From Candidatus Obscuribacterales bacterium (lineage in GTDB: Bacteria; Cyanobacteriota; Vampirovibrionia; Obscuribacterales; Obscuribacteraceae), in the NCBI GenBank assembly GCA_965228855.1, contig CBDDIJ010000003.1:256001-320000 (forward strand): a stretch of 64,000 nucleotides of DNA, in the 5' to 3' direction. The position numbers and the translations under genes were made by a program. Positions 6,389 to 12,000 of the stretch are shown here, in pieces. Position 1 is the first letter of the stretch. Each line of letters begins with the position of its first letter. The notes under the pieces are model-generated. The model saw only the letters and a list, made by a program, of their open reading frames with translations. It was not told the DNA's origin and did no database searches.

Positions 6389-6392
<4 letters not shown>
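5466..6392 (+). CDS. czcD: Cation diffusion facilitator (CzcD/ZitB-like Zn/Co/Cd exporter)
   Basis: His-rich N-terminus, SLALIADAGHMLGD, TYGYYR.EILAAL and VHDLHVWTIT; ATG 5466 is preceded by GGAGG. Confidence 0.9.
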
Positions 6393-8077
<1,685 letters not shown>

Positions 8078-8162: not shown

Positions 8163-8804
8163 CTACTTTCTCTTAGAGCCTCGAAGTCCGTTCAAAATTA
8201 GATGCAAAAATGTTTCAACCTCAGTGTCGAATACCTTTCGGTCTGGTCGCCCTTCCTGAGGCACTGCTAAGGTTCGATCGTACGGTGGCAGATAGGCTCC
8301 GAGCATCGTTGCAATCACTTCCGTTTGAAGAGTGGTATCGGTGTCCTTTGAAATTTCGCCTTCGCCAAGTGCTGCGTCAAGGAACGACTGAATTACATTT
8401 TTCATTTCGGCGAACTTGTGATGGGCGCGGCTTCGAATTCGTGCGCTTACATAGACCAGTGTGTCAGGTGTGCGCACGCTGCTGGACTCTTCGTACACCG
8501 AGCCGACGAACTTCTTCAATGTGGTTTGTAGCGCTGGAAGGAAATCTGAATCTGTTTTTTCCAAAATGCTACGCATCATTTTAACCATGCTTGCGCAGTG
8601 ACTTTCGCATATCGTGAGAAGGATATCTTCTTTGTTGGGAAACACCGTATATAGTGTCGCCTTGCTCATTGGTACGGCACGAGCGATCTCTTCCATTGTG
8701 GTTTTCTCGAAACCATTTTCGTGAAACAGTTTGCGTGCTGCATCGACAATCTTTTCGATTTTTGCGTCGGCTTTGGAATCGGCCTTTGTTTCGGCTGGGA
8801 CCAT
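8163..8804 (-). CDS. TetR/AcrR family transcriptional regulator
   Basis: HTH segment IVDAARKLFHENGFEKTTMEEIARAVPMSKATLYTVFPNKEDIL. The likely start is ATG 8804 with a GGAGGT RBS; the ORF-track start at 8969 is probably too long. Confidence 0.9.
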   Translation of the reverse strand: MVPAETKADSKADAKIEKIVDAARKLFHENGFEKTTMEEIARAVPMSKATLYTVFPNKEDILLTICESHCASMVKMMRSILEKTDSDFLPALQTTLKKFVGSVYEESSSVRTPDTLVYVSARIRSRAHHKFAEMKNVIQSFLDAALGEGEISKDTDTTLQTEVIATMLGAYLPPYDRTLAVPQEGRPDRKVFDTEVETFLHLILNGLRGSKRK

Positions 8805-8900
8805 TGTTACCTCCGGAGGCAAACGCGCTGCGCTGGGAGCTGGAGTGCGACTCGTCGAGGGACGATGACTCGCGTGGAGCCTCCAGGCAGTTTTCTGACT

Positions 8901-8945
8901 TTTACTATAGTAAACGATTGAACGATTTTTGTTTAGTCGTTCAAT
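8901..8945. promoter_or_regulatory. Candidate TetR operator / tetR promoter
   Basis: Perfect palindrome TTTACTATAGTAAA (8901-8914) and inverted repeat ATTGAACGA-N11-TCGTTCAAT (8917-8945), overlapping a TAAACA-17-TACTAT promoter-like pair on the - strand. Confidence 0.55.
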
Positions 8946-8969
8946 GTTAAATCGACATAAGTCGCCCAA

Positions 8970-9292
8970 CTTCTCCGCTCTCGTCCGCGCCGACCGCCCG
9001 CTGCCCCCTTGCTCCCCTGCTCCGCTACTCCGCTACTCCGCTACTCCGCTACTGCGCCTATTCTCCTCTCGGTATGTTTAGAAGGGATTTCGTATGCCGC
9101 CTGCGGAATGGGTTCCAGAGGTATTCCTCCCGAAGTATCAAATTCGCCTCGGTCTAATACTGCCAGCGGAATAGTGGAGAGCGGAGAAGGAGTTGCTGGT
9201 GAGCGGAGAAGGAGTGGTGGAGAGGGAGAAGGAGTTGCTGGTGAGTGGAGAAGGAGTGGTGGAGTCCGCGGAGGTAGGGGAGGAAGGGGAGG
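8970..9292. repeat. Low-complexity C-rich/G-rich foldback region with short tandem repeats
   Basis: (GCTACTCC)~4 at ~9016-9052; 42-bp direct repeat GGAGAAGGAGTTGCTGGTGAG.GGAGAAGGAGTGGTGGAG at 9183 and 9225; 13-bp perfect inverted repeat 8970-8982/9177-9189. Confidence 0.75.
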
Positions 9293-9501
9293 TACGCGCT
9301 TTTGTCGTTGTGATCGGCGCGTGTCGAAACTGCCAATAAAGAGGATTAGGCAAACAGTTGTCGAGTGATTTCCGCTTTTGGGAATTTGCACGGCGTTTGG
9401 AGTTGAATTCGCTGACTGGCACGGCGCTTTCGGTGTTTTGTAGTTTGGGCGACCAAACCTCGAAAGAACTGGACGCCCATCGAAAACTTGGATATGATTG
9501 A

Positions 9502-9691
9502 TATTGATACCAATAACAGATGCACAGGACTACCTGCGGTGGTCCACAACAATTGTCTGGCACGAGGCATTTAGACCCTCGTTAATAGGTAGAAATTGAG
9601 CGGAGATTGCACGGCAACCTCCGTTGATGGTGGCGCATTTAGTACCACTACAACGGGTTGTCGGCTTTGCGTTGAGTGGCTGTCCATGCGA
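9502..9691 (+). ncRNA. Unrecognised structured element B, copy 1
   Basis: Closely similar to 10171-10361; series of hairpins with compensatory changes; G-U pairs favour the + strand; TATGAT -10 at 9493-9498. Confidence 0.6.
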
Positions 9692-9848
9692 ATCTTCGTG
9701 AAATCGCTGATAAAAATGCTGTAACTGTTCCAGTGCAGAATTGGCTTGTGGTTCCGGGTTTTTGATGTTTGTCTGGCTGGTCTTCTCTCCGATGGATAGC
9801 GGCTTTCGTCGGACGCTAAAAAATTTTCTTAAAACAAAAATGGGGGAC

Positions 9849-9877
9849 TTCCGCGCGGGGAATTCTGTTGGTATATT
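9849..9877 (+). promoter_or_regulatory. Sigma70-type promoter of element A copy 1
   Basis: TTCCGC-17-TATATT with a TG extended -10 and an upstream A-tract. Confidence 0.6.
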
Positions 9878-9880
9878 AGT

Positions 9881-10092
9881 AAATGAAGACGGTGAGTGAC
9901 TTGAAACGAAGCCACTTTGAGCCGAGGGGCAATGCGGAAACGGCAGGTTGGCGCCCAACCGGATACGACAGCAAGCAGCCCGCTAAGCGTGAAGGACTAG
10001 CTGAAGCGCTTTGAAATACTGAGCCTGTGCAACAGGCAGCTAGACGGTAGCTTGAGCACCACTGCAACGTAAGTTGGGTGGTGTTTTTGTTT
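9881..10092 (+). ncRNA. Unrecognised structured element A, copy 1
   Basis: ~95% identical to copy 2 by manual count; own promoter; multiple hairpins; 3' intrinsic terminator at 10056-10092. Confidence 0.75.
10056..10092 (+). terminator. Intrinsic terminator of A1
   Basis: GCACCACTGCAAC-GTAA-GTTGGGTGGTGT followed by TTTTGTTT. Confidence 0.8.
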
Positions 10093-10138
10093 GCGGATCT
10101 TTCTCAAAAAAATATGGTGCCAAGATGTGCAAAAGTCG

Positions 10139-10167
10139 TTTACCAGCGGCATGTTGTTGGGTATGAT
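10139..10167 (+). promoter_or_regulatory. Sigma70-type promoter of element B copy 2
   Basis: TTTACC-17-TATGAT; the -10 is identical to the one upstream of B1. Confidence 0.55.
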
Positions 10168-10170
10168 AGT

Positions 10171-10361
10171 TATTGATACCAATAACAGATGCACCGGACT
10201 GCCTGCGGCGGTCCAAAATAATTGTCTGGAACGGGCATTCTAAATCCCGTTGAAATAGGTAGAAATTGAGCGGAGTTTGCACGGCAATCTCTGTTGATAG
10301 TGGCGCATTTAGTACCACTAAGACAGGTTGTCGGCTTTGCGTTGTCTGGCTATTCATGCGA
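10171..10361 (+). ncRNA. Unrecognised structured element B, copy 2
   Basis: Repeat of 9502-9691 at an offset of 669-670 nt, with structure-preserving substitutions. Confidence 0.6.
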
Positions 10362-10518
10362 CTCTCGAAGATCTGTGGTGTCGAATGTGGTGCGTATTTC
10401 TCCTGCCGGTGCAGTGCTGTTGTTCAAGCGTTCGCTGGCGGTTTGAAAAATATAGAAGCGCATGGATACTCATACTTGGCTTGCTCAAAAAAGTTTTTCA
10501 AAAACAAAAAAGGGGGTC

Positions 10519-10547
10519 TTCCCATGTGCATGATTCGTTGATATAGT
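10519..10547 (+). promoter_or_regulatory. Sigma70-type promoter of element A copy 2
   Basis: TTCCCA-17-TATAGT, TG extended -10, and an AAAACAAAAAA UP-like tract. Confidence 0.65.
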
Positions 10548-10550
10548 TAT

Positions 10551-10763
10551 AAATGAAGACGGTGAGTGACCTGAAACGAGGTCACGTTGAGCCGAGGGGC
10601 AATGCGGAAACGGCAGGTTGGCGCCCAACCGGATACGACAGCAAGCAGCCCGCTAAACGTGAAGGACTAGCTGAAGCGTTTTGAAATACTGAGCCTGTGC
10701 AACAGGCAGCTAGACAGTAGCTAAAGCACCGCTGCAACGCAAGTTGGGTGGTGTTTTTGTTTT
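10551..10763 (+). ncRNA. Unrecognised structured element A, copy 2
   Basis: Repeat of A1; terminator GCACCGCTGCAAC-GCAA-GTTGGGTGGTGT-TTTT at 10726-10763. Confidence 0.75.
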
Positions 10764-10996
10764 GGAAAGTTTTTCTGAGTCACCGCTGACGGTGCGCGCC
10801 GCCAGGCGTCGCTGCTCCCGTCTCCTGGCTTGCTGAGCGCTTCTTGGCAGGCGAGACTGGATTCACGTGAGAAGGTTCGAGCAGCAATACTGGTCTGTTG
10901 TTCAATGGATGCGAGAACAACTGCGTTTCCGAAACCCTTATGGATAGCTCTTATACATGGTTCCAGAAAGATTTTCTGAAAACAAAAAAGGGGGTC

Positions 10997-11025
10997 TTCC
11001 CACACGCATGATTCGTTGATATAGT
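10997..11025 (+). promoter_or_regulatory. Sigma70-type promoter of element A copy 3
   Basis: TTCCCA-17-TATAGT, TG extended -10, upstream A-tract. Confidence 0.65.
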
Positions 11026-11028
11026 TAT

Positions 11029-11241
11029 AAATGAAGACGGTGAGCGACTTGAAATGAGGTCGCTTTGAGCCGAGGGGCAATGCGGAAACGGCAGGTTGGC
11101 GCCCAACCGGATACGACAGCAAGCAGCCCGCTTAGCGTGAAGGACTAGCTGAAGCGCTTCGAAATACTGAGCCTGTGCAACAGGCAGCTAGACGGTAGCT
11201 TAAGCACCACGGCAACGCAAGTTGAGTGGTGTTTTTGTTTT
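11029..11241 (+). ncRNA. Unrecognised structured element A, copy 3
   Basis: Repeat of A1/A2; terminator GCACCACGGCAAC-GCAA-GTTGAGTGGTGT-TTTT at 11204-11241. Confidence 0.75.
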
Positions 11242-11529: not shown

Positions 11530-12000
11530 ATGACGGACAAGCTTCAAGTGAAAGTCGAGCGACTCGCGCACTGCAAAGAACTCCCTCGCTACGCCACCCC
11601 TGGCTCTGCCGGCATGGACCTGACCTTTGCTTCGGAAGAGCCGATCACGGTAGCGCCCGGCAAGCGCGCCAAACTCGCTACCGGTATCAAGCTTGAAATC
11701 CCGTTCGGATACGAAGCGCAGATTCGTCCCCGCTCGGGTCTGGCCGCAAAGGCGGGCATCAGCCTCACGAATTGCGTCGGCACAATCGATAGCGACTACC
11801 GCGGCGAAGTGATGGTTTTGATAATCAATCATGGCGACGAACCTTATACATTCAGTCCAGGTGAGCGTATTGCCCAGATGGTGATCGTGCCGGTTCCGGT
11901 CATCGAACTTGTTCAGGTCGAACAAGTCGCAGACACTGAGCGGGGTGAAGGCGGTTTCGGTTCGACCGGCAAAACTGCTCTTGCCGCCAACGGCGCTTAA
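11530..12000 (+). CDS. dut: dUTP diphosphatase
   Basis: GSAGMDL, IRPRSGLA, GTIDSDYRGE, RIAQMV and RGEGGFGSTG (motifs I-V). Confidence 0.97.
   Translation: MTDKLQVKVERLAHCKELPRYATPGSAGMDLTFASEEPITVAPGKRAKLATGIKLEIPFGYEAQIRPRSGLAAKAGISLTNCVGTIDSDYRGEVMVLIINHGDEPYTFSPGERIAQMVIVPVPVIELVQVEQVADTERGEGGFGSTGKTALAANGA

Follow-up and report, generated by a model that had tools for sequence, protein, structure and literature searches.

Poplar-1 genes and an uncatalogued structured RNA form a tandem array upstream of dut in an Obscuribacterales genome

Introduction

Between a TetR-family regulator gene and dut, a stretch of 64,000 nucleotides from a Candidatus Obscuribacterales bacterium (contig CBDDIJ010000003.1, positions 256,001 to 320,000; the window) carries five repeated blocks in the order B-A-B-A-A. 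What do these blocks encode, and how did they come to be repeated? An earlier note on this DNA had taken them for two unrecognised, independently transcribed structured RNAs that together form a dosage-amplified two-RNA system. Here the two kinds of block are identified, compared across relatives and weighed against other explanations.

Results

Layout of the locus

A repeat search bore out the five blocks B1, A1, B2, A2 and A3 with their copies and offsets, giving three A copies and two B copies (Table 1). The A copies form a 292-nt repeat family with 86–90% identity to the A2 reference and spacings of 670 and 478, and B1 and B2 are offset by 669–670 nt. No credible ORF was found in the block interval, as had been claimed, and within B neither start codons nor reading frames are kept across 11 copies. 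In the TetR-family ORF the true start probably lies further into the ORF. That mobile genes are absent nearby holds for the seven flanking proteins of the window, the scope of the check, among which there is no transposase, integrase or other mobile-element gene. The inverted repeats that flank A in the window (I1–I6) consist of the promoter A-tract and the terminator T-tract and do not generalise.

Table 1. Features of the block array and its neighbours (positions in the window)
Feature	Position	Strand	Details
TetR-family regulator ORF	8163..8969	-	Divergent left neighbour; Pfam TetR_N, E 2.8e-16
B1 promoter	9470..9498	+	-35 TGGACG 9470-9475, 17 nt, -10 TATGAT 9493-9498
B1 RNA, undescribed, structured, ~170 nt	9505..9674	+	Ends inferred
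A1 upstream region	9677..9880	+	Motifs 9677-9690, 9747-9754, 9792-9798
A1 promoter		+	GGGG box 9842-9850 abuts -35; extended -10 9869-9877
A1 poplar-1 RNA gene	9882..10092	+	Rfam core 9916-10054, 129.3 bits
A1 parts		+	Kink-turn hairpin 9890-9924; pseudoknot 9997-10002 with 10038-10043; terminator 10056-10092
B2 promoter	10139..10167	+	-10 TATGAT 10162-10167; -35 weaker
B2 RNA, second B copy	10174..10344	+	90% identity to B1 across RNA body; ends inferred
A2 upstream region	10347..10550	+	Colinear with that of A1; box 10512-10520, -10 10539-10547
A2 poplar-1 RNA gene and terminator	10552..10763	+	Rfam core 10586-10724, 133.5 bits
A3 upstream region	10826..11028	+	Colinear with those of A1 and A2, no B before; box 10990-10998, -10 11017-11025
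A3 poplar-1 RNA gene	11030..11240	+	Rfam core 11064-11202, 129.5 bits; terminator 11204-11240
dut (dUTPase)	11530..12000	+	Conserved right neighbour; then dapB, asd

Block A is poplar-1

All three A blocks match the Rfam family poplar-1 (RF03041, typed Gene; sRNA) over model positions 1–141 and above the gathering cut-off of 110.5 bits. Block A is poplar-1, a small RNA gene that has been catalogued without being explained. The earlier note, which had called both RNAs unrecognised and had named a strong Rfam hit as what would overturn its reading, was right about B, which has no Rfam match, and wrong about A. Poplar-1 is said to come from the screen of Weinberg et al. 2017. The name is not in the main text of PMC5737381, and a literature search did not find its host order, multicopy state or promoter, though the supplement of PMC5737381 may cover hosts or a pseudoknot; on Obscuribacter small RNAs in metatranscriptomes the search likewise found nothing. 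A drinking-water metatranscriptome study names poplar-1 beside 6S among the small RNAs detected (10.1101/2025.10.18.683149).

Poplar-1 matches are present in 101 of the 107 Obscuribacterales genomes sampled (98 above the cut-off), with a median of 4 and up to 14 per genome and at least two in 95 of the 107, and in none of 118 genomes of other families (class sample) or 150 genomes of the phylum sample. Six of the 107 have no match, so poplar-1 may be dispensable. Of the six poplar-1 genes in this genome, three are found elsewhere and without B, and A3 is not immediately preceded by a B. Copy number rises with genome size (Spearman 0.56, among kin that are not independent), a trend that neutral duplication would explain as well as dosage would; dosage amplification appears plausible. 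The copies cluster on one strand. In a sample of 98 copies, enriched for the dut locus, the nearest feature on the 3′ side is a same-strand ORF (48), a convergent ORF (21), the next poplar-1 (17) or none (12), and the neighbours are unrelated among loci, which argues that poplar-1 is not a cis-leader or riboswitch. Direct matches at -260 to -200 of poplar-1 are slightly in excess (14 vs 8.8), and viral contigs gave one match to a poplar-1 pattern.

The RF03041 model covers 141 of the ~205 nt of poplar-1, leaving out the terminator and the kink-turn hairpin at the 5′ end. The structure line printed for it has no pseudoknot, which covariance models cannot hold, though the original drawing may have one. 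Beyond this core, poplar-1 has a terminator, a conserved promoter box, a covarying pseudoknot of 6 bp and a 5′ kink-turn whose pattern is present in 92 of 96 copies. The six pseudoknot pairs are kept in 96, 89, 89, 84, 92 and 84 of the 96 copies, with swaps between G-C and A-U, and when block A was tested the consensus poplar-1 stems were kept with compensatory changes. The core comprises the kink-turn hairpin, a symmetric internal loop, the loop-to-bulge pseudoknot and a GNRA-capped stem; as drawn from covariation, the loop-bulge pair could be intra- or intermolecular. Poplar-1 also carries repeated GGA/GGAAAC words.

Promoters, terminators and spacers

A scan for sigma70-like promoters scored B1, B2, A2 and A3 (8 found, against 2.7 ± 1.8 in shuffles), and the -10 of A1, TGGTATATT (9869–9877), although absent from the scan list, aligns with those of the other blocks, so that each block has the promoter-like -10 claimed for it. 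The B1 promoter is conserved among congeners and in genus g92. The terminator ascribed to each A was not listed by the terminator scan, but a hairpin and U-tract are present and the top covarying pair of the 96 poplar-1 copies lies in that hairpin. The GGGG promoter box is found in 95 of 98 copies and stands 46–48 nt 5′ of the first stem of the RNA in 86 of 94 measured; six of the nine genome-wide matches to box plus -10 are poplar-1 promoters.

The DNA between the blocks had been described as diverged almost beyond recognition. Instead, the three pre-A regions are colinear and their motifs share offsets (9677/10347/10826, 9747/10418/10896 and 9792/10462/10940); judged by this alignment, the spacers are colinear poplar-1 upstream regions rather than random DNA. 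The final ~17 nt of B as first drawn recur, degenerate, before A3, where no B stands, so this tail belongs to the A upstream region and the B RNAs are better placed at about the intervals of Table 1. Genome-wide, the B tail motif is 2.7-fold above simple expectation, with no intergenic enrichment (7/32). Own promoters, covariation and compensatory changes support, at the level of sequence, the view of A and B as independent transcription units: non-coding RNA genes that each have their own promoter and whose structure is under selection.

Block B and the slot upstream of poplar-1

Against 4227 Rfam covariance models, block B had no match at E ≤ 10 in the window, only chance hits, and the B loci of five relatives had none at E ≤ 10 either. 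B is an uncatalogued structured RNA family, its novelty being relative to Rfam 15 and the literature searches made. It occurs in 7 of the 107 genomes, belonging to two genera, as 11 copies that all lie directly upstream of poplar-1; with the B model R1, a partial hit was found only in G168 (g95, E 6e-4, contig end). B1 folds into a 5′ multi-stem domain (core hairpin 9527–9545, then a variable hairpin), an A-rich linker and a long 3′ hairpin with a U-rich tail, which is interrupted and has no scored terminator. The fold z of the 11 copies is -1.6 to -3.6 (-3.6 for B1), against +0.9 to -0.7 for five spacer and flank controls. In an alignment of nine sequences 93.7% of cells are paired and 10 of 51 pairs show two-sided changes; none of 500 shuffles was as high, a count that is not a p-value since the nine sequences are related. 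B1 folds as its reverse complement too (z -2.1), so the strand of B rests on its promoter. The 5′ outer stems are invariant in genus g1 and g92 suggests another register, leaving the 5′ part of the fold uncertain. Duplication of a B+A unit, as had been proposed, is borne out by the same array in the relative G154 and by comparison of the B copies, paralogues within a genome being closer (0.90, 0.90 and 0.70) than copies of different lineages (0.77–0.81 and 0.52–0.60).

In relatives the order is tRNA-Thr, X, poplar-1, dut, with dut as the right neighbour in many genera. In other genera the slot X is filled by different structured RNAs of 270–450 nt, by a protein gene or by nothing; of the 34 loci having both tRNA-Thr and poplar-1, 22 have a structured RNA in the slot and 12 a short gap or protein ORF. 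Among the slot RNAs of g2, g7, g13, g84 and g101 model R1 had no significant hit, and profile and pairwise comparison of the slot families, B included, gave z below 4, the 3.6–3.8 between g1 and g13 resting on a 12-nt word. A scan of the slot RNAs gave no Rfam match to ROOL, GOLLD or OLE. By eye only, the B core hairpin resembles the 5′ hairpin of g7/g83/g101 (UACC..GCGGUA), a likeness for which the profile did not score B. At this one fixed position, different genera have well-folded RNAs of at least five kinds that cannot be aligned with one another. Either this is an orthologous RNA that evolves unusually fast, or the slot is a hotspot for new RNA genes, and either reading bears on the origin of bacterial non-coding RNAs.

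Assembly and expression

Contigs of four runs (X1, X2, X5 and X8) were compared with the locus. An assembly artefact, which the earlier note had named as a danger, or chance repeats can be given next to no credence. Assemblies often break or duplicate repeats and many relatives' poplar-1 matches lie at contig ends, but the copies here differ by ~10%, with compensatory changes, the independent assembly G154 has the same B-A-B-A-A array, and contigs of X1 span the B1-A1 and A1-B2 junctions. Contigs of three RNA studies (X2, X5, X8) fall inside A blocks only, where DNA carry-over is possible, and they show no ends, strand or level of A or B. They do not cover B, which says nothing on its expression because the runs were chosen by small word shares and B is genus-specific.

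Discussion

With the family identity, distribution, covariation-based structure, gene anatomy and repeat rearrangement established, the locus as a whole is best explained, at somewhat better than an even chance, as a small accordion built from independent non-coding RNA genes of two sorts. Poplar-1 would be a self-contained unit of ~350–400 bp, kept in several copies by Obscuribacterales and composed of activator-like upstream motifs, the GGGG box, a -35 and extended -10, the ~205-nt RNA and an intrinsic terminator, and B a separate ~170-nt RNA, driven from its own promoter, that locally fills a fast-evolving RNA slot. B-A-B-A-A would have arisen by tandem duplication of B+A and then more unequal crossing-over between poplar-1 units, with repeat copies presumably homogenised within each genome. 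Genomes of genus g7 vary in which genes, and in what order, lie between same-direction poplar-1 copies at one locus. Until now a metagenomic orphan, poplar-1 becomes a gene carried by nearly every genome of one order, multicopy and with promoters of its own, and its full-length ends, kink-turn and pseudoknot open it to tests by probing, cryo-EM and pull-down.

B and the other slot RNAs might instead form a two-RNA system with poplar-1, a conserved core with a variable specificity partner, co-amplified for dosage. All 11 B copies in 7 genomes stand directly upstream of poplar-1, structured RNAs fill the slot at 22 of the 34 loci, and an RNA+poplar-1 unit was duplicated jointly in four lineages (G000/G154, G120, G165 and G157, the last with the array order X1-A-X2-A-A-A). 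Adjacency alone, however, accounts for co-duplication, and a short gap or protein ORF takes the place of the RNA at the other 12 loci. Every B lies beside an A, but most A copies have no such neighbour, with B in 7 and poplar-1 in 101 of the 107 genomes and three of the six poplar-1 genes here lying elsewhere without B. The longest B-A complement is 10 bp, against 8–15 in shuffles, and the co-folding gains of -8.4 and -10.8 kcal/mol fall inside the non-cognate range of -6.3 to -13.0. With most poplar-1 copies lacking B and no B-A pairing seen, an obligate B+A system is unsupported, and the broader partnership is rather unlikely. Quite unlikely, too, is an RNA-only or RNA-led two-part machine in which poplar-1 would self-assemble by a loop-bulge kiss, its hypervariable neighbour would be an exchangeable specificity subunit, and poplar-1 units would be recombination nodes amplifying and reshuffling the genes between them.

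The array units have sharp ends, one ~93 bp before the GGGG box and the other at the U-tract of the terminator. This would suit a DNA module that is selfish or served by a recombinase, in the manner of a MITE or an integron attachment unit, with B as cargo and the upstream motifs as recombination sites; so would an upstream motif found at -90 to -95 in 72 of the 126 copies examined, the reshuffled cargo between copies in g7, the clustering on one strand and the scaling of copy number with genome size. At the left boundary of the 126 copies, however, target-site duplications (5 vs 5.1) and terminal inverted repeats (0 vs 2.6) do not exceed those of shuffled pairs, as the earlier note would have expected of RNA genes rather than a MITE. 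Genomes hold at most 14 copies, nearly all with an intact promoter box, the tRNA-Thr/dut locus is common to many genera, the seven flanking proteins include no transposase or integrase, and gain and loss of copies through homologous recombination between ~300-bp direct repeats would suffice for the shuffled orders, making such a module distinctly improbable. Very unlikely is a cis-acting role for B as a leader or attenuator, read-through of its weak terminator into poplar-1 under some condition providing a second regulated route. B does close with a hairpin whose U-rich tail is interrupted and for which no terminator was scored, its distance to poplar-1 is fixed, and its tail motif could pair with an inverted motif ~114 nt downstream; yet every A has its own promoter, tail motif and inverse are likewise present before A3, which lacks a B, the pairing is imperfect in relatives, and B matches no riboswitch family.

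Within the preferred accordion of independent genes, poplar-1 might, at rather less than an even chance, be an abundant trans-acting RNA working by its three-dimensional shape, extra copies raising the dose; it would bind or sequester a protein, or self-assemble via loop-bulge pairing, much as has been proposed for raiA, OLE, ROOL and GOLLD RNAs. B would most likely act like poplar-1, as a lineage-specific accessory RNA. CsrB/RsmY/Z and cyanobacterial Yfr2 are multicopy protein-sequestering sRNAs. Poplar-1 likewise has several stand-alone gene copies and repeated GGA/GGAAAC words, but differs in having a tertiary core, not repeated simple hairpins, and has no Rfam match to them. The L7Ae, CsrA and TROVE/Ro60 families had no matches in this genome (95% complete; controls found); a CsrB/Rsm sponge, a Y RNA and an L7Ae-bound kink-turn RNP were rejected, their cognate proteins not being found. 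Poplar-1 and raiA are of similar size class. The raiA motif RNA is described as very abundant and present in RNPs, with a compact pseudoknotted core, a kink-turn-like bend and unknown function (PMC12968392). Poplar-1 likewise has a pseudoknotted core and a kink-turn, but raiA is single-locus per genome whereas poplar-1 reaches 14 copies in one order, and there is no Rfam match between them. ROOL, GOLLD and OLE are structured RNAs of unknown function, ROOL and GOLLD often near tRNA genes, whose covarying loop-loop pairs proved intermolecular (PMC12286853), as may also be possible for the poplar-1 loop-bulge pair. They differ in being 600–800+ nt long and, for ROOL and GOLLD, mostly phage-borne, and neither A nor B matches them.

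Several other candidates were set aside. tmRNA, RNase P RNA and SRP RNA are all present elsewhere in the genome above cut-off; the SRP RNA found is the small form, and a search for the large form came back empty. ARAGORN reported no tmRNA for this genome, its low-threshold run giving noise only, which raised the idea of a split tmRNA in A/B, and RF00023 then located tmRNA elsewhere in the genome. Likenesses to T-box, hammerhead, glmS, c-di-GMP-I and group II intron domain 5 had no Rfam support. A type I toxin-antitoxin pair was rejected as no start or frame is kept in B, both RNAs are on the same strand and there is no B-A complementarity. B resembles 6S RNA in length and in having its own sigma70-type promoter, but has no match to RF00013 and is not folded as a 5′-3′ rod with a central bubble. 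Elsewhere, at G000:C2:813651, there is a weak candidate for 6S that is distinct from B.

Composition of the array and identity of block A

No credible open reading frame was found between the divergent TetR gene and dut, both identified by Pfam, in agreement with the earlier note, and alignments reproduced the block coordinates that it had proposed. A repeat search returned three copies of the A family, as a 292-nt repeat at spacings of 670 and 478, and block B twice, at an offset of 669–670. The array is not an assembly error, since a relative's genome, G154, has the same B-A-B-A-A order and contigs of sequencing run X1 bridge both the B1-A1 and the A1-B2 junctions. Between tetR and B1 (8990–9264) lie low-complexity repeats of 8 nt and 20–42 nt that are much shorter in G154, and an MFS transporter encoded on the minus strand (6389–8077) has an N-terminal poly-glutamine run unlike that of G154 in length.

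The A RNA, which had been described as unrecognised, is poplar-1: A1, A2 and A3 each match the Rfam family (RF03041) end to end at 129–134 bits (cut-off 110.5), and these are the only gathering-level matches in the 64-kb window. The family is thus already known; the present analysis supplies a host order, the full gene anatomy and a pseudoknot absent from the Rfam line. Six copies at three loci are present in this genome. Within the order, poplar-1 is found in 101 of 107 genomes, in 98 of them above the cut-off, for 537 matches (median 4 and at most 14 per genome). Samples of 118 genomes from other families of the class and of 150 genomes from the phylum yielded none. At loci in two relatives, G116 (L045, L046) and G200 (L158), poplar-1 genes, eight or nine of them, are interleaved tail-to-tail with diverged protein-kinase-like genes at a spacing of ~2.2 kb. 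A 2.6-kb IMG/VR contig opens with most of a poplar-1 RNA (L140:1-140) followed by two long ORFs; an RNA assembly has probably joined an abundant RNA to a viral contig here.

Anatomy of the poplar-1 gene

The anatomy of the gene was derived from 98 distinct copies whose flanks are complete; 96 of these were aligned, the other two lacking an anchor motif. The aligned RNAs are about 200–215 nt long and begin with a hairpin containing a standard kink-turn (3-nt bulge, tandem G.A/A.G), a pattern seen in 92 of 96. In the pseudoknot, six nucleotides of a 15-nt loop are paired to the bulge in the final core stem; taken in turn, these pairs are conserved in 96, 89, 89, 84, 92 and 84 of the 96 copies, with G-C/A-U swaps. 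The top covarying pair in this alignment sits in the terminator stem. Of 98 copies, 95 have a GGGG box adjoining the −35, with an extended −10 after it; among 94 measured, the distance from box to first stem is 46–48 nt in 86. Genome-wide, six of the nine matches to the box plus −10 pattern are poplar-1 promoters. Poplar-1 is a stand-alone gene, as its neighbours are unrelated and in either orientation.

The spacers had been thought to have diverged almost beyond recognition; the regions before A1, A2 and A3 are instead colinear, with three motifs at identical offsets. The first of these is what had been taken for the end of B, and it recurs before A3, where B is absent, so the B RNAs are placed at the shorter intervals in the table. 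The ~205 nt downstream would then belong to the poplar-1 regulatory region. In other genera the boundaries of the repeated unit are sharp: on the left a conserved motif ~93 bp upstream of the box, on the right the U-tract.

Coordinates and occurrence of the RNA features (unprefixed coordinates refer to the window, L-prefixed ones to loci of relatives)
Feature	Position or lineage	Remark
B1 RNA	about 9505–9674	ends inferred
B2 RNA	about 10174–10344	ends inferred
Poplar-1 pseudoknot	9997–10002 with 10038–10043	
Slot RNA B	genera g1 (this genus), g92	
Slot RNA	genus g2	~300 nt
Slot RNA	genus g7	~390 nt
Slot RNA	genus g13	~440 nt as cut
Slot RNA	genus g101	~270 nt
Slot RNAs, two paralogues	G157	~345 nt; array X1-A-X2-A-A-A
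Candidate new slot RNA families	L092:844-2060, L125:1380-1650, L089:1458-1843	270–450 nt, own promoters
Further candidate slot RNA families	L031:857-1291, L024:877-1179, L127:385-760	270–450 nt, own promoters

The B RNA and the slot before poplar-1

Judged from its sequence, B is an undescribed structured RNA of narrow distribution, and the slot that it occupies is hypervariable. In the window and in the relatives' loci scanned it is covered by no Rfam family. Two copies are present in this genome, and a DNA search found B in five of seven congeners and none of 53 other relatives; a covariance model detected 11 copies across 7 of 107 genomes and brought in genus g92, whose B is longer (210–223 nt) and again forms B-A-B-A ahead of dut. 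A fixed B pattern recovered eight loci in six records (one genome per species) and three loci in two metagenome contigs. The −35 and −10 are kept among relatives; neither start codon nor reading frame is conserved across the copies. Among nine g1 sequences, which are kin and from which the structure itself was derived, so that the figures are support and not a p-value, 93.7% of cells are paired and two-sided changes occur at 10 of 51 pairs. None of the 500 shuffles and none of the slid controls reached this signal, most of which comes from the long 3′ hairpin and a variable hairpin; the two outer stems on the 5′ side are invariant and uncertain. Fold z-scores range from −1.6 to −3.6 and those of controls from +0.9 to −0.7, but the reverse strand of B1 also reaches −2.1.

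To survey the slot, 60 regions upstream of dut, taken from among 102 genomes with a dut match, and 14 further loci were compared. The order divergent tRNA-Thr(CGT), X, poplar-1, (peptidase), dut recurs across genera. Among 34 loci with both tRNA and poplar-1, 22 have a gap of 570–750 nt that contains a folded RNA and its promoter, six a short gap and six a protein ORF. One representative per lineage gave fold z of −1.9 to −5.8, and within-genus alignments contain paired changes by eye. Comparisons between slot RNA families gave z < 4, except for a 5′ hairpin common to g7, g83 and g101; a slot RNA can therefore hold one domain while the remainder turns over. No Rfam match was found for the candidates among loci scanned. 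In this genome tRNA-Thr(CGT) is 31 kb from the array, which thus became separated from it. In two genomes (L113:2583-3300 and L134:1711-3390) small gene pairs, by eye putative toxin-antitoxin modules, take the place of RNA genes in the slot after tRNA-Thr.

Origin and possible function

B paralogues are closer within one genome than between lineages and three congeners carry a single B-A, so the array appears to have undergone collapse as well as repeated duplication or gene conversion. A locus of genus g7 that is flanked by cysK-like and TldD-like genes (labelled by eye) has three or four same-direction poplar-1 genes, and the cargo between them varies in content and order among genomes. This cargo (L047, L048, L152–L155, L160, L161) includes a ~2900-aa protein, a ~360-aa family and others within fixed flanks, resembling a cassette array. 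A mobile or recombinase-served module is nevertheless improbable: neither target-site duplications nor terminal inverted repeats were found in 126 poplar-1 copies, which also speaks against a MITE, and homologous recombination between the repeats would explain the reshuffling.

Contigs of three RNA studies, one from a 1.2-million-letter assembly, match at ≥99% identity and are confined to the A blocks; ends, strand and level are unreadable from such contigs, which may include DNA. A drinking-water preprint counts both 6S and poplar-1 among the small RNAs that are enriched within cells (10.1101/2025.10.18.683149). Neither A nor B replaces tmRNA, RNase P RNA or SRP RNA, since all three are encoded elsewhere in the genome. 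The only 6S RNA candidate there is weak (contig C2:813651-813889, 28.8 bits, cut-off 46.4).

An obligate two-RNA system of B and A seems unlikely; base pairing between them is not above controls, and B is far more restricted than poplar-1. That B acts as a cis-leader is very doubtful. Short conserved loops and little free single strand would favour action through shape rather than antisense pairing. In function the nearest parallels are raiA RNA, an abundant, compact, pseudoknotted and RNP-bound molecule (PMC12968392), and ROOL, GOLLD and OLE, whose covarying loop pairs turned out to be intermolecular (PMC12286853). A protein-binding or self-assembling scaffold is tentatively proposed; CsrA, Ro60 and L7Ae were not found in this genome.

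Elsewhere in the genome, contig C3 has a 21-gene tRNA array (C3:724518-727973) and a second cluster of five genes on the minus strand (C3:1529761-1530653), and the word TATATAGG occurs 97 times genome-wide against ~36 expected, often close to promoters.
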